DNA of 64,000 nucleotides from Waddliaceae bacterium (lineage in GTDB: Bacteria; Chlamydiota; Chlamydiia; Chlamydiales; SLOH01). The stretch is from NCBI GenBank assembly GCA_040880105.1, contig JBBDJA010000014.1:50624-114623 (forward strand), written 5' to 3'. Shown one piece after another: positions 13,504 to 50,394 of the stretch (the stretch's first letter is position 1; each line of letters starts with the position of its first letter). The notes beneath the pieces are model-generated. The model ran no database searches. It saw only the letters and a list, made by a program, of their open reading frames with translations, and had not been told where the DNA came from. Both the position numbers and the translations under genes were made by a program.

Positions 13504-14298
13504 TTAATTGGTACGTCGACGACGTCTTGGTTTCGGAGAGACAGCCGTCCCTTCAAGAACTTCGCTTTCCGGCCAGAAGTGAATGCGCGAACAGTGTTCA
13601 CAAAAAGTCAAGCGATCGCCCTTTCTCACAAGGTTTTCATGTTGCGGGGTCAAGGTGATGTGGCAACCGCTGCAAGTGCGATTTTCAATTGGAACAATGA
13701 CACGATTTCTTTTGTTTTTTAATAGACGCTCGTAGATCGCAAAAGTTTCAGCGTGAGCTTCTTGACTAAGAGTGTCTCTTGTCTTTTTGACTTTCTGTCC
13801 TTCTGTATTAATTTCAGAAATTGCCGACTTGATTTCTTCTTCTAAAGTTTGGCTACTTTCCACTGTGGAGTCAAGAGTTTCGCTTAAGTTTTTAAGTGTC
13901 TCTTCATCTTCAGCGAGAATATCGTATAGTTTGCTTAACTGCTGCTCTTTATTGACACGTTCTCTTTCTTCTCGTGAGATTTCATGACTTAGAGCGTTAA
14001 ATTCATCGACTTTTTTAACTAAACTTTGTTGATCTTCGTATTTTTTAATTTTTTCGACAGTTTCTTTGACTTCACCTTCGATATGTCGAATTAATGTTTT
14101 TTGTTCGGTGATTTCATCTTGCTTTTGGCCCATTCTCTTTTCAAGATCTGCCTTTATGCCATCAATTTTATCGAGTTCCTTCCTGCGTTCGCGCTTCCGG
14201 TTCAGTAATTGGAGCATGTTCATGTCAAGTTCTTGAATTTCAAGGATTTTTTTAAGCTCTTGTTGCATAGACTCTCTCTTATTTTTGGCAATTAGCAT
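13504..14298 (-). CDS. Coiled-coil / C4 zinc-ribbon protein (COG1579; HP0958 / chlamydial CT398 CdsZ-like)
   Basis: A long heptad-rich N-terminus, then the C-terminal ribbon CSGCHITLTPQ...FCEHCSRIHFW. The start is ambiguous (MQQELKKILEIQELD is an alternative). Confidence 0.75.
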   Translation of the reverse strand: MLIAKNKRESMQQELKKILEIQELDMNMLQLLNRKRERRKELDKIDGIKADLEKRMGQKQDEITEQKTLIRHIEGEVKETVEKIKKYEDQQSLVKKVDEFNALSHEISREERERVNKEQQLSKLYDILAEDEETLKNLSETLDSTVESSQTLEEEIKSAISEINTEGQKVKKTRDTLSQEAHAETFAIYERLLKNKRNRVIVPIENRTCSGCHITLTPQHENLVRKGDRLTFCEHCSRIHFWPESEVLEGTAVSPKPRRRRRTN

Positions 14299-18485: not shown

Positions 18486-19706
18486 ATGGCAAAGAAGAAG
18501 AGCAAAACAGATCAACCTAACGCGCAAAATCCATTGATCTTACGGGCAAATCGTTTGATAGATGCATTTGCTAAGTCCGATGAAGAGCGCAATTTTTATC
18601 TGGATCGAGTCGAAGGATTTCTGGTTCTTGTTGACCTAGATAAATCACAAGAAGAACTTGATAAGTTAGAAGCCGAGCTCGAAAGTCATTCCGAACGGTA
18701 TTGTTTAATTCCTAAGCTTTCCTACTATGAGACAAAAAAAATCATGGAGGGCTTTGTCAATGAAAAAGTCTTTGATATTGATATTAAGGAAAAGTTGCTT
18801 GATATCATTCAATCTAAAGAAGCCAGAGAAAATTTTATCGAGTTCATCCACGACCATATTTCCGAATTAGAAAAATGGCAGCAGTTCTATCAAGAAAGAT
18901 CGCGGATCCGTATTATTGAGTGGCTTCGAAAAAACAATTTTCACTTTGTATTTGAAGAAGATCTAGACATTCCTCTTCATACTATGGAGCTTGTAAAAGA
19001 GAATTTATTTTCACCAAAAGTGGGAAAAGAGGTGCAAGCAGCTAGAAAAACAATGGTTGCGAAGGCGCAGTCGTACTACTCCAATGAAGCGCTTAATCCC
19101 AAACCCAAACGCGGGCGCCCACCGAAGCAAGTGGCAAAATCAGAGATGGAGCCACAGATGACATCCGATATCTACACGCAAGTTCCAGCGCCTGTTCGCT
19201 CGTTTCTTTATATACCTGAAATTAAAAGCGTCACAGAGGTGACATTCTCATCTAAATATGAGACAAGGCAAGACCTTGTCGCTCACATGAGAGAGAGTGC
19301 AAATGAGGAAGGTAGAGACTTAAAGCACATTACAGAAAAACTTGCAGCTCTTCGTCAATTAACTGAAAAGTGGCATGAAAACGAGGCGGAAACGTCTCCG
19401 GACATCGAAGAAGCTCCTTCTAAACCTGTGCCAAAAAAGAGAATTACACCAGAGAGAAAGAGCCCGGATAAGATTGAAAGAAGTCCTGAAAAAAAGGCGC
19501 CGGCCACTCCTAAAAAGAAAGCACCTCCAAAAAAGGCACCTGTAGCTACTAAAAAGAAAGCACCTGCAAAAGCCGCCGCTGCGCCCGCTCCAAAAAAGAA
19601 AACGCCTGCGAAAAAACGGATCATGCCAACTAAAAAGGCAGCTGAGAAAGACAATAAAACACCCATGCGACGTGCACGCAAACTTCCTCCAAAAAAATCG
19701 AAGTGA
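18486..19706 (+). CDS. Conserved protein (UPF0158/CT429-like N-terminal domain, recalled from memory) with a histone-H1-like K/A/P-rich C-terminal tail
   Basis: 406 aa. The N-terminal 300 aa are globular (ERNFYLDRVEGFLVLVDLD...). The last 100 aa or so are KKAPATPKKKAPPKKAPVATKKKAPAKAAAAPAPKKKTPAKK... Confidence 0.7.
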   Translation: MAKKKSKTDQPNAQNPLILRANRLIDAFAKSDEERNFYLDRVEGFLVLVDLDKSQEELDKLEAELESHSERYCLIPKLSYYETKKIMEGFVNEKVFDIDIKEKLLDIIQSKEARENFIEFIHDHISELEKWQQFYQERSRIRIIEWLRKNNFHFVFEEDLDIPLHTMELVKENLFSPKVGKEVQAARKTMVAKAQSYYSNEALNPKPKRGRPPKQVAKSEMEPQMTSDIYTQVPAPVRSFLYIPEIKSVTEVTFSSKYETRQDLVAHMRESANEEGRDLKHITEKLAALRQLTEKWHENEAETSPDIEEAPSKPVPKKRITPERKSPDKIERSPEKKAPATPKKKAPPKKAPVATKKKAPAKAAAAPAPKKKTPAKKRIMPTKKAAEKDNKTPMRRARKLPPKKSK

Positions 19707-20509
19707 GGCCGGAGAAGAGACAAGCAATTGTCGATTGGATGGCGCGTTTAGGGATTGATGAAAAGGATTTAGAAGAATCTTTTGTTTTGGGCTCCGGACG
19801 CGGGGGACAGAAACGACAAAAAACGAGCAATTGTGTTGTTCTGCGTCATTTACCGACAAAAACCGTCATCAAATATAGTAAAAGTCGCTCAAGAGAGCTT
19901 AATCGCCTGCTCGCTCGCCGCTTACTCTGTGAAAAATTAGATCCAGTGCCCGCATCTCAAAATAAAATACGAAAGCAGAAAAAAAGACGCCAGCGCCGCG
20001 GGGCTGTAAAATTCCTTTGCGATGAGACGCTTGGGCAGTTAGGGGAGTGGCTGAGAGCTGCAGGTTATGATACAGACATTGCAGCGGCCGGAACAAGTGG
20101 TGATCATCTGATCAAACAAGCAAAAAAAGAAAAACGAGTATTCATTACTTGCGATCATTATTGTATTGAAAAGGACCCAGAGTCGCAATTCTCAATCTAC
20201 CTCTCATCCAATGATCAAAAGAGCGCTGTCCGTGAACTCACTGAAAAAATTTCGATCGACTGGCTATATAAACCTCTTACAAGGTGTTTGAAATGCAACA
20301 CACCTTTCATAAAAGCGCCCGAGGATGCATTAAGCAATGCACTTGAAATCAACTTAGAGCCATGCTCGCATTGCCCGCGTTGCAAGCAACAGGACCCGCA
20401 TGGTACGCATACTGACAATCTGTTACAGATCTTGCGGAGTTTTCGGAGCTTTCGGTTTATTGGTGACCCAGCAAATGAGCGGGAAGAGAAAGAACCAGAC
20501 GGCGCCTAA
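19703..20509 (+). CDS. Fusion protein: GGQ (class-I release factor / ArfB-like peptidyl-tRNA hydrolase) domain + basic linker + Mut7-C (DUF82) PIN-like RNase domain with zinc ribbon
   Basis: N-terminus: DLEESFVLGSGRGGQKRQKTSNCVVLRHLPTKTVIKYSKSRSRELNRLLA. Linker: KIRKQKKRRQRRG. C-terminus: KFLCDETLGQLGEWLRAAGYDT...RVFITCD...RCLKCNTPF...CPRC. The GTG start overlaps the upstream stop (GTGA). Confidence 0.7.
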   Translation: MRPEKRQAIVDWMARLGIDEKDLEESFVLGSGRGGQKRQKTSNCVVLRHLPTKTVIKYSKSRSRELNRLLARRLLCEKLDPVPASQNKIRKQKKRRQRRGAVKFLCDETLGQLGEWLRAAGYDTDIAAAGTSGDHLIKQAKKEKRVFITCDHYCIEKDPESQFSIYLSSNDQKSAVRELTEKISIDWLYKPLTRCLKCNTPFIKAPEDALSNALEINLEPCSHCPRCKQQDPHGTHTDNLLQILRSFRSFRFIGDPANEREEKEPDGA

Positions 20510-20971
20510 TACTAAAAGAGTCTTTACTTCACCCTTTGGAAATGCGACAGCTCCCATAAAAAGACCCGCCCGATAGGAAAGCGCCCCGCCAATTGCACCG
20601 CAAACGGCCGCGACAAACGGAATTTTCTTCACCCAAGTCAATGAGTAATTTAGTGTTGTCGACAAAATTCCATAAATTCCTAAAATCCAAAGTGGCGGCA
20701 AGGGACTCCAAATGACTCGGGATTTATAGATAAGAAACCCACTTTCGATCAATGCCGTTTCAACGACAAATCCAATTCCCACAACAGTGAAAACTTGTAG
20801 GAGTTCAAGCCATTTATCGGTACACCAGACAAAGTGGAGGATAATGACAAATAACGAGAGAGCAAACGCTATCAGTGGGTGGTTTGATGCGCCATAGAGA
20901 ACGACTGCAAACCATCCAAAATAAAAAAGCAATCCATTGATTGGATATTTAAGTTTCTCAAAAAGTTCCAT
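20423..20971 (-). CDS. Polytopic membrane protein, function unknown
   Basis: 182 aa, hydrophobic almost throughout with several TM-length segments. Divergent from cydA. Confidence 0.6.
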   Translation of the reverse strand: MELFEKLKYPINGLLFYFGWFAVVLYGASNHPLIAFALSLFVIILHFVWCTDKWLELLQVFTVVGIGFVVETALIESGFLIYKSRVIWSPLPPLWILGIYGILSTTLNYSLTWVKKIPFVAAVCGAIGGALSYRAGLFMGAVAFPKGEVKTLLVLGAVWFFLFPLICWVTNKPKAPKTPQDL

Positions 20972-23473: not shown

Positions 23474-23556
23474 GCCGGTGTGGCGAAATGGTAGACGCGA
23501 TAGACTCAAAATCTGTTGTTGGCAACGACGTGCTGGTTCGAGTCCGGCCACCGGCA
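23474..23556 (+). tRNA. tRNA-Leu (anticodon CAA), class II with long variable arm
   Basis: Hand-folded cloverleaf. Acceptor GCCGGTG/CACCGGC plus discriminator A. D stem GCG/CGC. Anticodon stem ATAGA/TCTGT with loop CT-CAA-AA. Long variable arm. T stem GCTGG/CCGGC with loop TTCGAGT. No encoded CCA. Confidence 0.9.
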
Positions 23557-23557
23557 C
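23542..23557 (+). repeat. Island direct repeat, left copy (attL-like; 3' end of tRNA-Leu)
   Basis: gtccggccaccggcac covers the T-stem 3' strand, the acceptor 3' strand and the discriminator. Confidence 0.7.
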
Positions 23558-24051
23558 ATATTAACCGAGTAGTTCTTAGGGACTATTCGGTTTTTTTCTA
23601 TATAAACAAGAAATTGATATTAAATTTTTTGAGTTATTGTTTGCAAAATTTTATTTCTTTTATTGATTTATAATCTTTTCAGTCTCCCAGACAAAACAAT
23701 TCCTAGGTATTTCAAAGAAACTGATTTCGTAAGTAGGTTTTTTATTGTCGATGCAGCATGTGAAATTTGGGAGATTTTTAATAATTCAGATTGTTATTTT
23801 GAATTTATGAAGTTATATTTAATTACATTGTATTATAAAGATTTAGTGAAATTTAATTTTATATAATAAATAAAACTAAACTTCAAGTTAAGTAATATTT
23901 TTTTTAAATCTAAATTACATTTAAAGCATTTCATAGGCAATGCATCTGGTGTAAGTTAAAGTTTTTAAACATTATTTATTTCTATATTCATATAAAATTT
24001 AATTTTAAATTTCTGATAATTAGTGTGTTATGTTGATTTGAATTATAAAGT

Positions 24052-24079
24052 GGTGCATAATACTTCAAAAGAATGCACC
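24052..24079. promoter_or_regulatory. Inverted repeat GGTGCAT-N14-ATGCACC, 11 nt upstream of the RHH gene (candidate operator)
   Basis: Exact 7-bp arms read directly from the sequence, immediately 5' of the first gene of the island operon. Confidence 0.3.
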
Positions 24080-24089
24080 TTGGAACGAT

Positions 24090-24272
24090 ATGGATAAATA
24101 CGCACAGAAGACAATTCGCACCTCAGTGATTTTGTCTGAAGAATTACATAAGCAAATTATCGATTTAGCAAAAAAGAATGACGTATCTACTGCATGGATC
24201 ATACGGTATGCCTTGAATCAGTTTCTTGAGACAAGCGGAAGAAAATTAAAGCTTAAGCCGATAAAGGAGTGA
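24090..24272 (+). CDS. Ribbon-helix-helix (CopG/Arc-like) DNA-binding protein
   Basis: 60 aa. [41 protein letters not shown] fits the beta-strand, helix, helix RHH pattern. The stop lies 4 nt before the hsdM start. Confidence 0.65.
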
Positions 24273-24276
24273 AATA

Positions 24277-25854
24277 ATGACAGTCAAAATGAAAAAACAC
24301 AGATCGGGAGCAAATATTGGCTTCGAGCAACAGTTGTGGGCTGCCGCCGATAAAATGCGTGGTCATATGGACCCCTCGGAATACAAGCACGTCGCCCTTG
24401 GTCTAATCTTCCTAAAATACATTTCGGATGCATTCGACGAAAAATACAACCAACTCAAAGAAGAAGCTGGAGCAGACCCCGAAGATCGGGATGAATATTT
24501 AGCTGATAATATCTTTTGGGTTCCAAAGTCTGCACGCTGGAACGTGATTCAAGCGAATGCTCGGTCAACAAAAATTGGAACCATTATTGATGAAGCTATG
24601 ACTGAGCTCGAGAAGGAAAACACCTCTCTTAAAGGAATATTACCTAAAGACTATGCCCGCCCAACGTTAAACAAAGAGAAACTTGGAGATCTTGTCGATC
24701 TGATGAGTACCATAAGCATGAAATCACATGGTCAAAAGGATATTCTCGGACGCGTTTATGAGTATTTTCTTGCCCGCTTCGCAAGCGCTGAAGGGAAGGG
24801 AGGAGGGGAATTTTATACTCCTCAGTCGATTGTTCGTTTACTCGTCGAAATGCTGAAGCCTTATAAGGGAAGAGTATATGATCCTTGCTGCGGTTCAGGC
24901 GGTATGTTTGTCCAGTCTGAAAAATTTGTTGAGGAGCACGGTGGAGGTATTGGCGATATTTCCATTTACGGACAAGAGTCGAATCCGACTACATGGCGTC
25001 TCTGCAAAATGAACCTCGCTATCCGTCAAATTGAAGGAAACATCGGTTTCAAAAATGCGGACACTTTTCATAACGATCTGCACAAGGACCTCAAAGCGGA
25101 TTACATTATTGCTAACCCTCCTTTCAATATCTCTGATTGGGGAGGAGAAAACCTCCGTGAAGATATGCGTTGGAAGCTAGGTGTGCCCCCTGCAGGAAAT
25201 GCTAACTTTGCTTGGGTGCAGCATATTGTCCATCACCTAGCCCCCCGAGGCGTTGCAGGTTTTGTCCTCGCCAATGGCTCGATGAGTTCAAATACAGGCG
25301 GTGAGGGTGAAATTCGCAAAAAACTCATTGAAGCGGATCTTGTCGACTGTATGGTCGCTCTTCCAGGTCAGCTCTTTTACTCAACTCAAATTCCCGTCTG
25401 TCTTTGGTTTCTCGCTAAAGATCGGAAAGGAAGTTCGGAATCAAATTCTAAAATGCGAGATCGAAGAGGAGAAATCCTTTTCATTGATGCTCGCAAACTC
25501 GGATATATGGCGGATCGCACCCACCGTGATCTTGATGCTGATGCTGATATTAAATATATCGTCGATACCTACCATTCATGGCGAGGGGACGAGGTTGATC
25601 ATGAGTCATTCAAAAATGGATATCAGGATATTTCAGGGTTCTGTAAGGCAATAAAAACTGAAGAAGTACAAGAGCATGATTTTGTTCTGACCCCAGGGCG
25701 TTATGTTGGTGCAGAAGAGATTGAAGACGATGGAATCTCCTTTGATGAGAAAATGAAAGAGCTAACTCAAACACTTGCAGAACAGATGGAACGATCAAAT
25801 GAGCTGGATGAGGAAGTCAAAAAGCAATTGGCGAGGTTGGGTTATGAGTTCTGA
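24277..25854 (+). CDS. hsdM: Type I restriction-modification system, methyltransferase subunit
   Basis: HsdM N-terminal domain ([32 protein letters not shown]), SAM motif [10 protein letters not shown], catalytic motif IV NPPFN. Confidence 0.95.
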
Positions 25855-27097
25855 TTGGAAACGTGTAAAACTAGATCAAGCGCTTTGTATAAATCCCAAA
25901 GTACCGATGATTAAAGGTAAAGAATATCCTTTCGTTGAGATGTCATCCGTAGAAGCTAACAATAAAAATGTCAAAGCTAAAGAAATAAGAACTTTTAAAG
26001 GAAGTGGCTCCCGTTTTGTAGAAGGTGATACTATTATGGCACGAATAACTCCCTGCCTTCAAAATGGAAAAATAAGCAGATATAAGGCTTTTAATCAAGA
26101 AAAGCACGCCCATGGTTCAACAGAATTCATCGTTTTACGCCACAGAGAAAACATTACCCATAAAGAGTTCGTGTATTACTTGACCATATCAGATCAGGTT
26201 AAGCCCTATGCTATTTCACAAATGAATGGCAGTTCAGGAAGGCAGAGAGTCCCTGTCGACTCATTTAAACACTTAGAGATAAATTTACCTCCCATTGCTG
26301 AGCAAAAAGCTATTGCAGATATCCTTTCGTCACTAGACGAAAAAATCGAACTCAACCGCCAGATATGTAAAACTCTTGAGGACATTGCAAGTACGTTATT
26401 CAAAAGCTGGTTCATAGATTTTGATCCTGTAAAAGCAAAAGCTGAAGGTAGGGCGCCAGAGGGCATTTCTCCAGAGACTGCAGCACTGTTTCCTGATAGC
26501 TTTGAAGATTCTCCTAAGGGTCGTATTCCAAAAGGATGGAAACTAACAACTTTAAAAGAAGTAGCTTTAAACTTTGATTCAAAAAGAATACCCCTATCAA
26601 ATAGGGAAAGAGAAAAAAGAAGAGGATATTATCCGTATCATGGCGCTACAGGCGTTTTAGATTACCTTGATGATTATATTTTTGATGGAATTTATTTACT
26701 ATTAGGGGAAGACGGTTCCGTGGTCAAAGAAGACGGAACGCCCTTTACTCAATATGTGCGTGGTAAATTTTGGGTAAATAATCACGCCCACGTACTTCAA
26801 GGAATATACCCAATAAGCACAGAGCACCTGTATTTATTTATAAGACAATTAAATATTAGCCCATTCATAACTGGTGCTGTGCAGCCCAAACTAAATCAAA
26901 AAAACATGTATTCAATTCCTTTCGTTAAACCTGATAAAGAGATTTGTCGGCATTTCGCTAAAATTGTCTCACCATTATTTGAAAGAATTTATGCTCTTCG
27001 TCAAGAAATCAAATCTCTAGAAAAAATTAAAAATTCTCTAATCCCAGAACTACTCATTGGAAAAATTCGCATGAATAAAGGTACAGGTATTAAGTAA
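25844..27097 (+). CDS. hsdS: Type I restriction-modification system, specificity subunit (two target-recognition domains)
   Basis: Start moved to the ATG at 25844 ([12 protein letters not shown]), an 11-nt overlap with hsdM. Conserved spacer helices [26 protein letters not shown] and [15 protein letters not shown]. Two TRD-like halves. Confidence 0.9.
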
Positions 27098-27616
27098 ATG
27101 AGTGGAGAGAAAAGGATTCAACCCAAAATCAGGATGGAGCAATTATCAATGGCGTATATACATGCCATAGCCTCCCATTTGGGGTTTGGTGCTGACAAAC
27201 CACTAGTCGATCACGACAGCATTGACCTTACAATAAGTAGTTCCTCTGGTAGAAAAGTTAAACTTGACATACAGTTAAAATCTACTACTACTTTCACTAA
27301 TGAACAGTTGTTAAGTGAAAACATATCTTTTCACTTACCTATTAATAATTACAATGATCTTAGAACTGAAACACTTTGCCCTAGAATCCTCGTTGTCTTT
27401 TGCATGCCCTCTAATGAAAGTGAATGGATTGAGCATAGTACTGAACAATTGATCCTTCGAAAATGTGCATACTGGATCTCATTACAAGGCGAGCAGGATA
27501 CTACTAATAAAGAAACGATAACAATCAGAATTCCAACAAAGAATATTTTCTCCCCTGAAAGTCTGGAAAAACTCATGCTTAGAATTGATAAAGGAGAAGC
27601 CATTAACAATGATTAA
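27098..27616 (+). CDS. DUF4365-like protein (PD-(D/E)xK restriction-endonuclease-like fold), embedded between hsdS and hsdR
   Basis: 172 aa. EQLSMAYIHAIASHLGF...DHDSIDLTISS...VKLDIQLKSTT resembles the DUF4365 consensus (G..yv..ia...G......D.GiD..i......i.vQvKst). The ATG directly abuts the hsdS stop. Confidence 0.6.
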   Translation: MSGEKRIQPKIRMEQLSMAYIHAIASHLGFGADKPLVDHDSIDLTISSSSGRKVKLDIQLKSTTTFTNEQLLSENISFHLPINNYNDLRTETLCPRILVVFCMPSNESEWIEHSTEQLILRKCAYWISLQGEQDTTNKETITIRIPTKNIFSPESLEKLMLRIDKGEAINND

Positions 27617-28742
27617 TGATCTTAAACAAATTTTATTGGATCTATCTGTTCTAGACATCAAGCGCTACTTGCTAGCACAAGGCTGGTCACTAATAGATCA
27701 AATTCAAGATAAAGCCTTGATGCTTCAACATAAACAATATTCTGAAGAGCTAATTCTCCCAATGAGAAAAGAACTTGGTGACTTTTCTATTAGGATGGCG
27801 GAACTCTTTAAAACTTTATCTTTAATTAAAAATAGGCAAGTCCTCTCACTTATAAATGATATCAATATGTCAGGAACAGATATAATAAGAATAAGAATAA
27901 CAAAAGAAGCGACAGATGGAACCTTGCCTTTTAATACTACTAGCGAATTGTTTAATAATTCAAAAGAAATGCTATTATCAGCTGCTTCGGCAGTAAACAA
28001 TCCTCAAAAAATATATAGTTCGAGAAGAACAGACGAAGTTCAAAATTTTATCAACAAACTACGGGTCGGCCAAACAGAGTTTGGTAGTTATATTTTAACA
28101 TTTTTGTCTCCTGTTTCACCAAAGTTGTCAGAGCAGCTATCCCTTTTCCCCGATATGGAAGTCGACGATGACCCTTTTTCAAGACAAACAACAAAAATGC
28201 TTTTAAAAGCACTTATTGCTGCAAAAAAGGCTGCTGCAGAATCAATTACAAGCAATAGTATTGAACCATTTGAAAAGGCCATATCTCAAGGAGTCAGTGC
28301 GAATTTATGTGACTCCATTGCAAATATTGTAAATAAAGCTGGATCAACTGAAATATCTCTTACCTGGGCTAGCAATCGTCCTATTTCTAATTTTAAAAAT
28401 ATAGAAAAAGTATTTTTTGATAATGAAACGGCAGAAATACTTGGTGAAGTTGCTCGCACTTTTAAAAAAAATGAACCAATACAGAATCACTCAATTACGG
28501 GGTGGATTTACAAGCTACGGCATGATCAAAATGATCCTGAAGGGACGATTTACATAAGAACAACAATTGAAGAAAAAAACAGAACTGTAAAAACACAGTT
28601 ATCTGAAAATGACTATCAAAAAGCCTCAAAAGCCCATAGTGACAGAAATCTAATAACAATAACAGGTGAATTAATTATTCGTGATAAAAATGCTGAGTTA
28701 TTATACCCAAGAAACCTAATAATAGAAAATTACGATGACTAG
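27609..28742 (+). CDS. Hypothetical 377-aa protein, no recognisable domain, embedded between hsdS and hsdR
   Basis: Start moved to the ATG at 27609 ([28 protein letters not shown]), an 8-nt overlap with the upstream gene. Its own end overlaps the hsdR start by 8 nt. Clean long ORF with normal composition. Confidence 0.7.
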
Positions 28743-31700
28743 CCAATTATCTGAAGACATAGTAGAGCAAGCCACACTTTCCTGGCTTAAGGGTTTAGGT
28801 TATGAGATTGCCCAGGGACCCAACATCGCCCCCGACAGCCCATCTCAAGAACGAGTAAACTATTCCGATATTATTCTTGAAGACAGACTTCGATCCGCTC
28901 TATTTACTATAAACCCAAAGATTTCTTCCGAGCTCCTAAATGAAGTCACTCGCAAGGTAGTCAGCACACAATCCCTTGATCTTTTTGAAGACAACCGCAT
29001 TTTTCACCAAATGTTAGTTGATGGCATCGATGTTGAGTACCAAAGAGACGACGGCTCTATTGCAGGGGACAAAGTTTATTTGATCGATTTTGAAAACATC
29101 CAAAACAATAGCTTCTTGGCCGTCAATCAATTTACGGTTATTGAAAACAAACGAAACCGTCGCCCTGATATCATCATCTTTATCAACGGCATGCCTCTTG
29201 CTGTTATTGAACTCAAAAATGCAGTTAATGAAAACACTACGCTGAACCAAGCCTATAACCAATTTCAAACCTACAAAAAAGACATTCCCTCCCTTTTTCG
29301 GACAAATGCATTTCTTGTCATCTCTGATGGAATAGAAGCCAAAGCAGGATCTTTGACCGCCGATAAAGAACGGTTTATGCCTTGGAGAACAATTGACGGG
29401 TCAACAATTGCTCCGAAGGGTAAAGCAGAACTGGAAGTATTGCTGAAGGGTATGTTTCGACATGATGTTTTCTTGGACCTGATTCGAAATTTCACTGTTT
29501 TTGAGGTCGATGCAGAAAAAATCGTTAAGAAGGTTGCTGCCTATCATCAATATCATGCTGTCAACAAGGCGGTAAGCTGTACAGTCGATGCTTCTTCTCC
29601 AGAGGGAGACAAAAGAGCAGGCGTTATTTGGCACACTCAGGGGTCAGGAAAGAGTTTGTCAATGGCTTTTTATGCTGGAAAAATTATCCAAGAGACGGGA
29701 ATGGAAAACCCGACCTTGGTTGTTCTGACTGATAGAAATGATCTTGACGAACAACTATTCAATACGTTTTCGAACTGTAAATCACTGTTTCGCCAAACAC
29801 CTGTGCAAGCAAACAACCGAAAGCACCTGATCGACTTACTCTCGGTCGCTTCTGGTGGTGTCATTTTTACAACCATACAGAAGTTTAACTCTGAAAAGGG
29901 AGAAGAGTATCCTTTGTTGTCGGATCGTCGAAATATCGTAGTCATTGCCGATGAAGCGCACCGCAGTCAGTATGACTTTATCGATGGTTTTGCTCGTCAC
30001 ATGAGAGATGGACTTCCCAATGCCTCCTTCATAGGGTTTACAGGAACGCCTATTGAATTTTCGGATAAAGACACGTATGCCGTTTTCGGAGACAATATTC
30101 ACACCTATGATATTCAACAAGCCGTTGACGACGGAGCGACTGTACGTCTCTATTATGAAAGTCGTTTAGCTAAAATTGAGTTAAACGAAACTGAACGCCC
30201 TCATATTGAACAAGAATTCGAAGAAATTACGGAACGTGAAGAAGATAATCTCAAGCAGAAACTCAAGAGTAAATGGGCAAGATTGGAAGCTCTTGTGGGT
30301 GCGGAAAATCGCATCAACCTCCTTGCAGAAGATATTATTGAGCACTTCGAAAGGCGAAGAGAGGCAATGGAAGGTAAAGGAATGATTGTTTGCATGAGCA
30401 GGCGCATTTGCGTTGAGCTTTACAAGGCAATCATTAAATTGCGTCCTGAATGGCATAGTGATGATGACAATGAAGGTCTTCTGAAAGTTGTCATGACGGG
30501 TTCTGCGAGCGACCCACAGGATTTTCAACCCCATATCCGAAACAAGAAGGCTAGAGATCATTTAGCACTACGTGCTAAGAAACCTGAAGATTCCCTTAAA
30601 TTAGTGATTGTCCGTGACATGTGGTTGACAGGGTTTGATGCCCCTTGCATGCATACGATGTATGTGGATAAGCCGATGCGGGGTCACGGATTGATGCAGG
30701 CTATCGCCCGCGTAAATCGAGTATTTAAAGATAAGCCAGGTGGGCTAATTGTTGATTATTTAGGTATTGCTGACTTTTTAAGAAAAGCCCTTGCTAATTA
30801 CACTGAACAAGACAGGGGAGAAATAGGTGTCCCCCAAGAAGAAGCAGTTGCTGTCATGCAAGAGAAGTTTGAAATTGTTCAGCAATTATTTCATAACTTT
30901 GACTATTTATTAGCTATTGACGGGACTCCTACTGAACGTCTCAGTATGATACCGGCAGCAATGGAACATATCTTATCTCAAGAAAATGGACGTGAACGCT
31001 TCATGCAGTCAAGTCTTGATCTTTCAAAAGCTTTTGCCTTGTGCGCTGCAAGTGAAGAAGCTAAATCAATACGGGATCAAGTCGGATTCTTCCAAAATAT
31101 TCGAGCTGCTTTTGCAAAGTCCACCCTTGGTCCAGGAAAAGGATTGGATGAGCTAAATACAGCTCTTCAGCAGGTTGTATCCCGAGCTGTCGCTTCAACC
31201 GAAATGATAGATATTTTCGGCGCTGCGGGTCTGAAAAACCCTGAAATATCAATTCTTTCAGACGAGTTTCTCGTTGAAATCAAGGGAATGGAACGAAAAA
31301 ACCTGGCCCTTGAAATGCTTAAAAAACTTCTCAAGGATGAAATTCGTACACGGTCGAGTAAAAATGTGGTTCAAGCCCGAAATTTTACGGAGATGTTGGA
31401 AAGTACGATCCAAAAGTATCAGGGGCGTTTGATTGAAACGGCTCAAGTGGTTGAAGAGTTGATCGAGCTTGCCAAAGATATTCGTCAAGCTAATGAAAAA
31501 GGGAAAGAACTTGGTCTTAGTGAAGATGAATTTGCCTTCTATGATGCCTTGGGTGACAACAAAAGTGCTAAAGATGTGCTTGGCGACGATCAGTTAAGAG
31601 AAATTGCGAGGGAGCTTGCAGACTCGATTCGCAAAAATACTACAATTGATTGGACGCTCAAGGAAAGTGTTAAGGCGAGGTTGCGTATCCTCGTCAAACG

Positions 31701-31803
31701 CATCTTGCGCAAATATGGCTACCCGCCTGATTTACAAGAGAAGGCTACTCTGACAGTACTTGAGCAAGCAGAATTGCTTTCTAACCAGTGGATGAAGACT
31801 TAA
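28735..31803 (+). CDS. hsdR: Type I restriction-modification system, restriction/translocase subunit
   Basis: 1022 aa. HsdR N-terminal nuclease region ([18 protein letters not shown]), Walker [13 protein letters not shown] box [10 protein letters not shown], helicase C motifs ([14 protein letters not shown]). Confidence 0.95.
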
Positions 31804-31824
31804 ATTGTTAAAACTAGGAAAAAT

Positions 31825-32832
31825 ATGACCTCACAAAATTTTTGGATGATTCGAGCTGGAGCAGGCGGTAGAGTGATCAATGATTTCAAAGAAAAAAATC
31901 TGGTTGCTATTGGATGGTGTGAATCGATTGATCTTTCTAAGATTTCAACAAAACAAAATATTAAGGATTTAATCGCTTCAACTTATCCTGAAAATTCCCA
32001 ACATCAAAATAACATGATCGCTGGTCAAGTGTTTCGCTTTGTGCATGAAATAAAAGTCGGTGACAGAATAGTAACCTACGATTCAACGATGCGATCCTAT
32101 CTTGTCGGAAATGTCAGCACAGGTGCCTATTTTGATCTGTCGCAAATACATTCAATGCCTAACTGTAGACAGGTTGAGTGGAAAAATGAGGTTTCACGCG
32201 ACTTACTGTCTGTGAACGCTAAAAATTCCCTCGGGAGCATCATGACATTATTTAGAATATCTCCTGAAATCTCTTCCGAATTACTTTCTTGTGTTAAAAA
32301 TTCACCATTACAATCCCATCAAGAGCCCAACAATGATGTTATCGAAGATGAGGCTGATCTTTTGAAAGATGTGCAAGCCCGATCTCTTGAATTTATTAAA
32401 GACAGAGTTAGCAGACTTGATTGGGAATCTATGCAAATCCTTGTAGCGGACATTTTAACGGCAATGGGATATAAAACCCGAATATCACCTCCTGGCTCCG
32501 ATAGAGGAAAAGATATCATCGCTTCGCCTGATGGTTTTGGATTTGAACAACCTAGGATTGTTGTTGAAGTTAAGCACCGAAAAGGAAAAATGGGCGCACC
32601 AGAAATCCGTAGCTTTTTAGGAGGACGTCACAAGGATGATAAAGGGCTTTATGTTAGTACTGGCGGCTTTACTAATGAAGCACGTTATGAGGCAGACAGA
32701 GCGACAATACCGCTTACTTTAATGGATCTTGATGATTTAGTCATCGCTCTGGTCGAAAACTATGACAGTATGAGAGTAAATAGTAGGGCTCTTATCCCTT
32801 TGGAAAAAGTTTACTGGCCAATTGATAATTAA
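31825..32832 (+). CDS. Mrr-type (type IV-like) restriction endonuclease with an uncharacterised N-terminal domain
   Basis: The C-terminal Mrr_cat pattern is ILVADILTAMGY...GSDRGKDIIASPD...PRIVVEVKHRKGKMGAPEIRSFLGG...GLYVSTGGFTNEA. The N-terminus is FWMIRAGAGGRVINDFKEKNLVAIGW... Confidence 0.85.
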   Translation: MTSQNFWMIRAGAGGRVINDFKEKNLVAIGWCESIDLSKISTKQNIKDLIASTYPENSQHQNNMIAGQVFRFVHEIKVGDRIVTYDSTMRSYLVGNVSTGAYFDLSQIHSMPNCRQVEWKNEVSRDLLSVNAKNSLGSIMTLFRISPEISSELLSCVKNSPLQSHQEPNNDVIEDEADLLKDVQARSLEFIKDRVSRLDWESMQILVADILTAMGYKTRISPPGSDRGKDIIASPDGFGFEQPRIVVEVKHRKGKMGAPEIRSFLGGRHKDDKGLYVSTGGFTNEARYEADRATIPLTLMDLDDLVIALVENYDSMRVNSRALIPLEKVYWPIDN

Positions 32833-48783: not shown

Positions 48784-49882
48784 ATGAACGAAGAGCTGCA
48801 GGAAAGAGTAAAGAGCCTCGATGCGCGTATTCTTCATATGTGGAGGTATCTTTGACCTGGCTAATAAAGAGTCTAAGGTTAAAGAGCTTGAGAAGCAGAT
48901 GGAAGAACCGGAATTCTGGACGGATTCTGATGCTGCGCAAAAAGTAATCGCCACATGCAATGAATTAAAGAATTGGACCGTGCCTTACTACGAGCTAAAG
49001 AATCGATTCAGTGATTTACAAGCTCTTTTGCCGGAAGCATTTGAAATCGAAGATGAAGAGTTACAATCCGAGCTTCTTCGGGAATTAAAAGATGTAGAGC
49101 AAGGAGTCTCCGACCTAGAAGTGAAAAAAATGCTTGCGGGGGAACTCGACCCGAAAAGCTGTTTTTTAAGCATCAATGCGGGGGCCGGCGGAACAGAGGC
49201 GTGTGATTGGGTCCAGATGCTTGCTCGTATGTACGAAAGGTGGGCTGTAAGAAAGAAATGGAAAGTCGATGTGATCGATAAGGTCGATGGCGAGGTAGCT
49301 GGAATTAAAAGCATTACCTTAAAATTTTCCGGTGATTTTGCCTTTGGGTACTCCAAAGCGGAGAGGGGGGTTCATCGCCTTGTTCGCATTTCACCATTTG
49401 ATAGCGGGGCGAGGCGACATACAAGTTTTGCATCCGTTGATGTCATTCCTGAAATTACTGACGATATTGAAGTGGATATCAAGCCCGATGAAATTCGCGT
49501 AGATACCTTCAGAGCGTCAGGTGCAGGGGGGCAGCATATCAATACCACCGATTCTGCCGTGAGGATGACCCACATGCCCACAGGAGTTGTTGTCTCGTGT
49601 CAATCCGAGCGAAGTCAAACGCAAAACCGTATGACATGTATGTCGATGCTGCGGTCTCGACTGTATGAATTAGAGGTAATGGAGCGTGAAAAAGCGTTAA
49701 AAGAGCAGGTGGGAAGCGAGAAGAAAGAAATTGCGTGGGGAAGTCAGATCCGCAACTACGTCTTTCAACCCTATACACTTGTGAAAGACACAAGAACGAA
49801 AGTACAGTCAACAGACATTAATGGTGTGATGGATGGAGATATCGATCCCTTTGTCAACGCATACCTCAAAGAGGAGGGGTAA
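48784..49882 (+). CDS. prfB: Peptide chain release factor 2 (requires programmed +1 frameshift at 48853)
   Basis: Frame 0 reads MNEELQERVKSLDARILHMWRYL then TGA. The +1 frame continues DLANKESKVKELE... and carries SPF and GGQ (RASGAGGQHINTTDSAV). Confidence 0.95.
48842..48856 (+). promoter_or_regulatory. RF2 autoregulatory +1 frameshift signal
   Basis: GGAGG TAT CTT TGA C: an internal Shine-Dalgarno-like element 3 nt before the slippery CTT, followed by an in-frame TGA and then C. Confidence 0.9.
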
Positions 49883-49884
49883 AG

Positions 49885-50394
49885 ATGGTGAAACAGCCGG
49901 AAAATTCGGATTATAACGTTCGTTATACAGACACTAGCGATGCTGAACATTTGAAAGAATGGTTGTTAGATCCTTCTGTAAAGAAATGGTTTCCGATGAT
50001 GGACGAGCCGGAAATTATCGATTCGGTCAAACGTTGGATTTACTTCTCTAGATATAAATGTAGTCTTACAATTACAAAAAATGGGGTTCCATGTGGAATT
50101 GCGACTCTTTACTTACAGCCATACCGAAAGCTGGCGCATCAATGTGAATTTGGAATCATTATTGGCGGTGACTACCGAAATCAGGGTGTTGGATCCGAAC
50201 TTTTAAACTCACTGATCCATTTAGCTAAAACCTTCTTTAAAATTGAACTTTTACACCTCCAAGTTTATGCGGAAAACCCGGCAATTCGCCTGTATGAACG
50301 CTTTGGGTTTAAAGAGTTTGGCCGTCAGACGGGCTGGATTAAAGAAGAGGATGGCTCTTTCACCGCAAGAATCTTTATGGAAAAATATTTATAA
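49885..50394 (+). CDS. GNAT-family N-acetyltransferase
   Basis: The acetyl-CoA loop RNQGVGSELL sits in a beta-strand/helix context. 169 aa. Confidence 0.8.
   Translation: MVKQPENSDYNVRYTDTSDAEHLKEWLLDPSVKKWFPMMDEPEIIDSVKRWIYFSRYKCSLTITKNGVPCGIATLYLQPYRKLAHQCEFGIIIGGDYRNQGVGSELLNSLIHLAKTFFKIELLHLQVYAENPAIRLYERFGFKEFGRQTGWIKEEDGSFTARIFMEKYL

Follow-up and report, generated by a model that had tools for sequence, protein, structure and literature searches.

The DNA analyzed here is a 64,000-nt stretch of contig JBBDJA010000014.1 from a Waddliaceae bacterium (assembly GCA_040880105.1, positions 50,624 to 114,623 of the forward strand), called the window below. At 19703-20509 (+) it contains an uninterrupted open reading frame (ORF) of 268 codons plus a TAA stop, with a GTG start, that encodes a class-I release-factor-type GGQ domain and a Mut7-C domain in one polypeptide. 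The gene is a genuine and selectively maintained fusion in a narrow Waddliaceae-related lineage of the Chlamydiota. The RF-1/Mut7-C combination is undescribed and very rare; both domains themselves are already known. By analogy with the human mitochondrial factor mtRF-R, the product may by itself rescue 50S subunits on which peptidyl-tRNA is retained, with Mut7-C as its RNA-recognition partner in cis. We assign this interpretation a probability of roughly 0.45. The gene had been pointed out in a reading of the sequence alone, made before any database search (the sequence-only reading), and all motifs quoted there, SGRGGQKRQKTSNCVVLRHLP, KIRKQKKRRQRRG, FLCDETLGQLGEWLRAAGYDT, RVFITCD and RCLKCN...CPRC, are present in the translation.

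A genuine and very rare gene fusion

Fusions in metagenome-derived sequences are sometimes artefacts, and the sequence-only reading had considered that a frameshift or sequencing error might have joined two genes. An identical product, called from Met13, was found on contigs of two independent Logan assemblies. A full-length orthologue (P0002) with 62-65% identity is encoded in an NCBI metagenome-assembled genome (MAG) labelled Waddliaceae bacterium and in an ENA assembly, where its neighbours are the same as in the window (ClpP, DapF, UPF0158, fusion and convergent DUF2878). Counting both species, five independent assemblies contain the fusion ORF without interruption. No ATG, GTG or TTG occurs in frame where the two domains join, and Met13 is the last Met of the protein. 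The Mut7-C half, which has no start codon of its own, can therefore be translated only within the fusion. The ratio of nonsynonymous to synonymous substitution rates (dN/dS) relative to the orthologue, calculated by the Nei-Gojobori method and approximate since dS is near saturation, came to ~0.06 over the GGQ domain and to ~0.13 over the core of Mut7-C. It stayed well below 1 across the junction; the zinc-ribbon/C-terminal part is fast-evolving, with a dN of 0.48. Both halves are under purifying selection. An assembly or sequencing error, for which no specific support was found beyond the general ground given above, is extremely improbable in view of the independent assemblies, the lack of a possible start codon for the Mut7-C half and the low dN/dS across the junction.

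To our question of how common the architecture is, a phmmer search of 1.84 billion cluster representatives returned only the cluster of the query itself at E < 1e-30, and this was the sole match to both halves. The remaining matches among the top 150 (at least 71 bits) covered either residues 1-~108 only or ~100-250 only, and the longer phmmer matches were other, sporadic fusions (PGA_cap, DUF2204 nucleotidyltransferase, GTPase, YidD, Pterin_4a and FtsX). When 5.8 billion proteins were searched by word index, with the whole protein and the profiles of its halves as queries, no further RF-1 plus Mut7-C protein was among the matches listed. In a scan of 185,579 GTDB species-representative genomes the fusion was found only in the Waddliaceae MAG, and a scan of Joint Genome Institute (JGI) metagenomes gave no additional fusion; both locus scans used short peptide patterns, which divergent fusions could escape. 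The architecture is not widespread, a point on which the sequence-only reading had left room for the opposite outcome. Its statement that no characterized example was known also agrees with the literature, in which we found no paper that describes such a factor; none of those listed by a combined search brought Mut7-C together with release factors or GGQ. Mut7-C is also absent from the fullest survey of release-factor architectures (PMC6514570).

Coupling of a GGQ hydrolase to an RNA-handling module is not without precedent, as illustrated by PrfH-RtcB, C12orf65-MJ1316 and mtRF-R-MTRES1. Some eukaryotes have C12orf65-like proteins joined to MJ1316, a domain that binds RNA ends, and in the PrfH-RtcB operon a GGQ hydrolase is likewise coupled to an RNA-repair module (PMC6514570). 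Unlike in the chlamydial fusion, the RNA modules are MJ1316 and the RtcB ligase, and the lineages are different. The same small GGQ family also occurs in other predicted fusions (P0004, P0059, P0089, P0111, P0112, P0120 and P0136), the partners being UppP, DUF2204 nucleotidyltransferase, an MMR_HSR1/RsgA-like GTPase, pterin-4a dehydratase, YidD, FtsX and DUF1269. Some of these may be gene-calling read-throughs; the fusions of GGQ with the nucleotidyltransferase and with the ribosome-binding GTPase could be biologically meaningful.

The two domains and the segment between them

The N-terminal half was matched by RF-1 (PF00472) over aa 17-98 with 58.2 bits, above the curated threshold of 35 (E 1e-15), which confirms the class-I release-factor GGQ domain recognized in the sequence-only reading. 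The assignment of this module to the ArfB type did not hold. The best sequence matches in the PDB were human C12orf65/mtRF-R (7a5h_C, E 3.5e-20), in a structure of mtRF-R bound to the split mitochondrial large subunit (mt-LSU), and its mouse homologue (2rsm, E 3.7e-17). Weaker matches were RF1/RF2 (~5e-6) and PrfH (7e-5). Foldseek placed the same two structures, 7a5h_C and 2rsm, on top in the same order, and E. coli ArfB and ICT1 were absent from both the PDB sequence matches and the fold matches of this half. The ArfB/YaeJ equivalog NF006718 (NCBIfam) was rejected at 25.7 bits against a cut-off of 100, with a match over aa 13-48 only. Canonical RF1 and RF2 were rejected as well, the prfA and prfB models scoring 37-41 bits against cut-offs of 370-423, and a PCRF domain is missing.

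The AlphaFold 2 (AF2) model of the full-length protein had a mean predicted local distance difference test (pLDDT) score of 87.3, and the GGQ domain scored >90 outside the GGQ loop, which is flexible in the model (pLDDT 61). In the model, an N-terminal helix (aa 3-15) precedes a sheet of three strands (aa 23-58), and a second helix follows (aa 64-79). A turn of 4 residues connects strands 41-49 and 54-58, and there is no alpha-i insertion. The missing alpha-i separates 'classical ArfB'/C12orf65 from ArfB class 1/ICT1 (Burroughs and Aravind, PMC6514570). Like the fusion, E. coli ArfB (YaeJ) and human ICT1 combine a codon-independent GGQ hydrolase with a basic C-terminal region, and both have a role in ribosome rescue; unlike the fusion, they possess the alpha-i helix and carry no appended domain, and the C-terminal helix of ArfB probes the 70S mRNA channel. 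Human C12orf65/MTRFR (mtRF-R, 7A5H chain C) is closer. It shares with the fusion ~50% identity in the core, the absence of codon-recognition domains and of alpha-i, and a basic segment after the C-terminal helix of the domain, and it works with an RNA-binding module. Its partner MTRES1 is a separate, S4-like protein, whereas the fusion has the unrelated Mut7-C in cis. The fusion further differs in lacking the distal tail and in having a bacterial host.

Stand-alone relatives of the GGQ half form >7,900 clusters of 131-141 aa proteins, including those of Simkania and other Chlamydiales, and are annotated as 'peptide chain release factor-like protein'. In these proteins, for example P0337 (Simkania sp.) and P0357 (Chlamydiales bacterium), the N-terminal 100 aa are 45-57% identical to the fusion, which is orthologous-grade, and all invariant residues and the KIRRQK.RR.RR tail motif are shared. 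These proteins end in a ~45-aa tail and have no Mut7-C domain, unlike the fusion. The GGQ half of the fusion keeps all family-invariant residues, and the GGQ loop itself, the conservation of which the sequence-only reading had left to be checked, is kept in the orthologue and in 30 relatives. Judged by sequence, this half is complete and belongs to the bacterial C12orf65/MTRFR-like family of predicted codon-independent GGQ hydrolases. At one stand-alone locus, in Chlamydiales bacterium DATAHV010000172.1 (L036, 2301-3573), a pseudouridine synthase gene (PseudoU_synth_2, PF00849) begins 38 nt after the GGQ gene and a divergent gene for an RRM protein lies before it, an RNA-related neighbourhood.

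The linker that follows the GGQ domain aligns with KIRRQKRRRSRR of the stand-alone GGQ proteins, the tails of which run on as ...AKEKML..K..S.KK..R (consensus ...EKIRRQKRRRSRRAKEKML..K..S.KK..R). In the fusion, Mut7-C comes directly after RRQRRG, and KIRKQKKRRQRRG is followed by strand 1 of Mut7-C at aa 103. By this alignment, the linker is the proximal half of an ancestral basic tail whose distal half was replaced by Mut7-C. Only the proximal KIRKQKKRRQRRG is kept of the positively charged C-terminal extension, and the helix modelled by AF2 at aa 84-100 is internal, not a free C-terminal basic helix that could enter the mRNA channel. Since a globular domain of 17 kDa begins immediately after its ~13 basic residues, we infer that the linker is unable to thread the mRNA channel in the way the C-terminal helix of ArfB does. 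Thus the sequence-only reading correctly noted a basic segment after the GGQ domain, but the comparison with the channel-probing tail of ArfB does not apply to a segment that is internal and homologous to the C12orf65-family tail.

The C-terminal half was matched by Mut7-C (PF01927) over aa 103-243 with 88.1 bits (cut-off 23.3, E 8e-25), covering profile positions 2-145 of 146, and four Cys fall in invariant columns, in line with the Mut7-C domain and zinc ribbon described in the sequence-only reading. On profile and residue evidence this half is a whole Mut7-C module of the prokaryotic kind, composed of a reduced PIN-like core and a zinc ribbon. Modelled alone with AF2 (70 homologues), this half reached a pLDDT of 87.6; for the full-length model the GGQ homologues in the alignment were trimmed. 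Both halves are folded confidently by AF2, which agrees with the two folds expected in the sequence-only reading, and three of the four invariant Asp are kept. The best PDB match found by Foldseek was the crystal structure of the C-terminal domain (CTD) of C. elegans MUT-7 (8q66_A, prob 1.0); PIN domains followed as weak matches. A PDB sequence search with the Mut7-C half alone gave noise only, 8q66 being reached by the profile and fold searches.

The closest relatives of the Mut7-C half are stand-alone proteins of ~160 aa with 35-40% identity, and those with an organism name are gammaproteobacterial. Stand-alone Mut7-C/COG1656 counts 1,778 clusters at E <= 1e-5. These prokaryotic proteins (PF01927/COG1656, ~155-165 aa) have the same fold, zinc-ribbon Cys and three invariant Asp as the fusion. 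Of the columns invariant in 69 homologues, the fusion keeps D107, which aligns with an Asp found in 69/69, W116-L117-R118, G121, D123, R145, D151, W187, P191 and N199, as well as the four zinc-ribbon Cys, G234 and H236. In comparison with the stand-alone proteins, the fourth Asp has shifted in the fusion lineage: its column is occupied by G133 with D134 next, and the orthologue has K followed by E. R150 is replaced by C, W232 by P and R239 by N, the W232 and R239 columns being conserved in 69/69. In place of the family motif YWxGSHxxRM the fusion has a degenerate DPHGTHTDNL, and the motif is deleted in the orthologue. The full prokaryotic invariant set (four Asp, TRD Arg and YWxGSHxxRM) is accordingly incomplete. 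The worm MUT-7 domain is without the 'TRD' Asp, which the fusion protein retains.

The Mut7-C domains that have been assayed, the CTD of worm MUT-7 and that of human EXD3, bind RNA but were inactive alone and served as nuclease-negative controls (PMC11347159). In a classification of PIN domains, PF01927 is entered without a known function, and its activity is described as 'depending on species' (PMC5499597). The name RNase is given to Mut7-C by prediction only, and ribonuclease activity of the present domain is possible. Of the earlier proposal that one polypeptide both releases the nascent chain and cuts RNA, the presence of both domains in one ORF stands; cutting is not established, given the lost invariant residues and the assayed relatives that are inactive alone. 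A stand-alone Mut7-C gene was also noted in the gammaproteobacterial MAG WGLP01000002.1 (L039, 5001-8888), ~0.6 kb from genes for tRNA-synt_2 (PF00152, 320 aa), EF-P and a weak Radical_SAM match. These neighbours may be epmA, efp and epmB, which relate to polyproline stalling. The proximity of Mut7-C and EF-P may be a coincidence, as it is a single case that is absent at another Mut7-C locus (L038).

Possible action on the split large subunit and competing explanations

In the mechanism that we propose, a stalled ribosome would first be split, and the fusion protein would then rescue the 50S subunit still holding peptidyl-tRNA. The GGQ loop would enter the peptidyl-transferase centre via the empty A site and hydrolyze the nascent chain from its tRNA. 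The Mut7-C domain, held ~20 residues away on the basic helix, would provide RNA recognition in cis, a role equivalent to that of the separate RNA-binding protein MTRES1 for human mtRF-R. It could dock on the exposed P-site tRNA or on the 23S rRNA at the interface between the subunits, accessible only once these are split, and it might also cleave the bound RNA, for example the tRNA. The 50S-peptidyl-tRNA substrate, this division of labour and catalysis by either domain are predictions.

The model is based on the mtRF-R/MTRES1 precedent, the archaeal neighbourhood of NFACT and Mut7-C, and the C12orf65-MJ1316 fusion mentioned above. No release activity of mtRF-R was observed on 70S or 55S ribosomes (PMC8786322). 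Together with the S4-like RNA-binding MTRES1 it was found on the split mitochondrial LSU with P-site peptidyl-tRNA (PMC8786322, PMC13388722), and the two work together on this particle carrying P-site tRNA (PMC8786322, PMC9757039, PMC13388722). On the bacterial 50S-peptidyl-tRNA complex the MTRES1 site is occupied by Hsp15 and RqcP, and the releasing factor for this complex is explicitly stated to be unknown (PMC9757039). Archaeal genes for NFACT (RqcH/NEMF-family) have a conserved neighbourhood with Mut7-C (PMC4075521). This NFACT-Mut7-C-AMMECR1 arrangement links Mut7-C to a factor that acts on large-subunit-peptidyl-tRNA; in contrast to the fusion, the genes are associated in an operon, and Mut7-C is paired with a tailing factor instead of a hydrolase (PMC4075521).

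Several observations weigh against the proposed mechanism. The substrate is suggested by analogy with one mitochondrial homologue that is ~50% identical in the core, and we know of no experimental characterization of bacterial members of either family. Because several family-invariant residues are lost, the ancestral Mut7-C activity may be altered in the fusion lineage. In the searches made, the fusion is carried by two species only, and with two fusion sequences the AF2 inter-domain geometry is uninformative. The 26 stand-alone GGQ loci had no Mut7-C gene within 10 kb, and a GGQ gene was likewise absent from the vicinity of 4 stand-alone Mut7-C loci. Due to this lack of a neighbourhood link between the stand-alone genes, the fusion looks like a single evolutionary event and not like the consolidation of a widespread operon.

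The sequence-only reading had viewed the protein as an ArfB-like factor for the 70S ribosome, in which the basic stretch would sense an empty mRNA channel, the GGQ domain would release the peptide and Mut7-C would cleave mRNA or rRNA. The succession of GGQ domain, basic segment and PIN-like domain is consistent with this proposal, as is the retention of three of the four invariant Asp (D107, D123 and D151). The stand-alone prokaryotic Mut7-C family keeps all four, as an active PIN nuclease would, and it is the inactive worm domain that has lost the 'TRD' Asp. SmrB and Rae1 are examples of precedents for mRNA cleavage coupled to rescue. However, the GGQ module belongs to the C12orf65 branch and not to ArfB/ICT1, and the characterized member of this branch is inactive on 70S and 55S ribosomes (PMC8786322). 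Furthermore, where ArfB has its channel-inserting C-terminal helix the fusion has ~13 basic residues and then a globular domain, and the nuclease half has a displaced fourth Asp, replacements of R150, W232 and R239, and in the orthologue a deletion of YWxGSH. We consider this model of an ArfB-like 70S factor unlikely. A protein with two enzymatic activities in ribosome-associated quality control (RQC) would share the evidence for a 50S substrate. On the split subunit, GGQ would release the peptide and Mut7-C would cleave the P-site tRNA, for example at its 3' end or in the anticodon arm; the tRNA might thereby be evicted or marked, similar to the cutting of the CCA end by Vms1/ANKZF1. The conservation of D107, D123 and D151 under purifying selection and the archaeal NFACT-Mut7-C operon (PMC4075521) argue for such an activity, Vms1 releases through tRNA cleavage (PMC9757039), and some oomycetes have Mut7-C joined to a domain for aminoacyl-tRNA editing (PMC5499597). 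Still, nuclease activity has been shown for no Mut7-C domain (PMC11347159, PMC5499597), the fusion lineage has lost family-invariant residues, and hydrolysis plus tRNA cleavage would be partly redundant for peptide release. We consider this version, in which tRNA cleavage is an obligatory part of the mechanism, unlikely.

A function outside rescue would require either a toxin-like or defence PIN nuclease that uses GGQ for ribosome targeting, or a neutral recent fusion without joint function. The related PIN-like groups COG4634, PIN_10 and PIN_16 are predicted toxins (PMC5499597), and the sporadic fusions of the same GGQ family with YidD, FtsX, UppP and pterin dehydratase may be accidents. A weak PADLOC match to BrxP was found (16 bits, E 7e-4), but it is marginal and the defence/toxin assignment was rejected. 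No antitoxin-like partner is present, the housekeeping synteny is kept between species that are only 62-65% identical in this protein, and purifying selection acts on both halves. In addition, the junction lies exactly at the domain boundary with the tail homology retained. These observations make a function outside rescue, or no joint function at all, very unlikely. Rescue of split 50S subunits, with Mut7-C recognizing RNA in cis, is the interpretation that we favour.

Genomic surroundings and possible significance

Within the sequence GTGA at 19703-19706, the GTG start of the fusion overlaps the TGA that ends the upstream gene for an H1-tailed protein. The overlap described in the sequence-only reading is thus real, and the orthologue has the same GTGA junction. 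Because E4 and K5, which lie upstream of the first ATG, are part of the N-terminal helix conserved across the GGQ family, the GTG start is favoured over the ATG at Met13, which was the start chosen by one gene caller (P0001). The UPF0158 gene and the fusion gene are probably co-transcribed and translationally coupled due to the overlap of stop and start. The histone-H1-like C-terminal tail of the UPF0158 protein is ~110 aa long and rich in Lys/Ala/Pro. A promoter/terminator scan gave nothing above chance. At its other end the fusion gene overlaps the convergent DUF2878 gene (Table 1), an arrangement also kept in the Waddliaceae MAG (L001) with an overlap of 69 nt. The tail encoded in the overlap is 87% identical to that of the orthologue, and dS is 0.24 there versus >0.9 elsewhere, suggesting constraint from the antisense DUF2878 gene. 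The probable cause of this tail conservation is the final transmembrane helix of DUF2878, encoded on the opposite strand.

The surrounding genes are ordinary chromosomal genes, including those for PNPase, a TadA-like deaminase, a CT398-like protein, SHMT, ClpP and DapF. The gene order is glyA-clpP-dapF-UPF0158-fusion, followed by DUF2878, cytochrome bd I/II and tRNA-Leu. The G+C content of the fusion gene is 45.7% (halves 46.0% and 45.6%) versus 40.7% for the whole window. A canonical release factor (PCRF + RF-1) is encoded at 48821-49882, which argues that the fusion is an accessory factor. The region 48821-50394 (+) comprises this class-I release factor of 353 aa and, immediately after it, an ORF for a GNAT acetyltransferase. 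At 13504-14298 (-) the window encodes the CT398-like protein, a chlamydial signature protein that combines a C4 zinc ribbon with a coiled-coil hairpin. Together with the H1-like-tailed protein and the Waddliaceae orthologue, it suggests that the host belongs to the Chlamydiota. In the region 23474-32832, tRNA-Leu(CAA) (23474-23557) is directly followed by the genes of a complete type I restriction-modification system and then by one for an Mrr-like restriction endonuclease, which may be an integrated defence island.

Table 1. Positions in the window of the fusion gene, its parts, the adjoining genes and the restriction-modification genes (pLDDT values from AF2)
Feature	Position	Strand	Evidence or remark
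Whole fusion gene	19703..20509	+	ORF list and sequence; two Pfam domains above cut-off; independent assemblies; orthologue in kept synteny
C12orf65/MTRFR-type GGQ peptidyl-tRNA-hydrolase domain, aa 1-80	19703..19942	+	PF00472, PDB, fold and conservation; activity predicted
GGQ catalytic tripeptide, G34 G35 Q36	19802..19810	+	Sequence; invariant in orthologue and 30 family members
Linker with KIRKQKKRRQRRG, aa 81-102; predicted helix aa 84-100	19943..20008	+	Alignment to stand-alone tails; pLDDT 70-75
PIN-like alpha/beta core, aa 103-193; D107, D123 and D151 after strands 1-3	20009..20281	+	PF01927; pLDDT 93-97; Foldseek
Zinc ribbon (C195, C198, C224, C227) and C-terminal helix, aa 194-253	20282..20461	+	Cys align with invariant family Cys
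Disordered tail GDPANEREEKEPDGA, aa 254-268 and stop, inside DUF2878 gene	20462..20509	+	pLDDT <50 for aa 258-268
Upstream gene, UPF0158 with histone-H1-like Lys/Ala/Pro tail	18486..19706	+	PF03682, E 1e-74; same arrangement in Waddliaceae MAG
Convergent DUF2878 membrane-protein gene	20423..20971	-	PF11086, E 2e-29; overlaps last 87 nt of fusion gene
HsdM	24277-25854		
HsdS	25775-27097		
DUF4365	27098-27616		
ORF between DUF4365 and HsdR	27585-28742		
HsdR	28735-31803		
Mrr-like restriction endonuclease	31825-32832		After HsdR

The fusion represents one event in two uncultured chlamydial species and generates a hypothesis, not proof. A broader proposal, which we regard as quite unlikely, is that Mut7-C is a general and unrecognized component of prokaryotic RQC that recognizes, and possibly cleaves, tRNA on split large subunits. 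If this were true, the chlamydial fusion and the pan-archaeal NFACT(RqcH)-Mut7-C operon would be two independent 'Rosetta-stone' signals of one function, and the C12orf65-like proteins that are widespread in bacteria would be the release factors still missing for 50S-peptidyl-tRNA. In humans, MTRFR mutations cause disease. The fusion protein would be a one-polypeptide solution to the job that is split between MTRFR and MTRES1 in human mitochondria, and such a minimal bacterial MTRFR analogue could serve as a structural and biochemical model. As a natural fusion of two large uncharacterized families, it provides a testable clue that their members act on the same particle.

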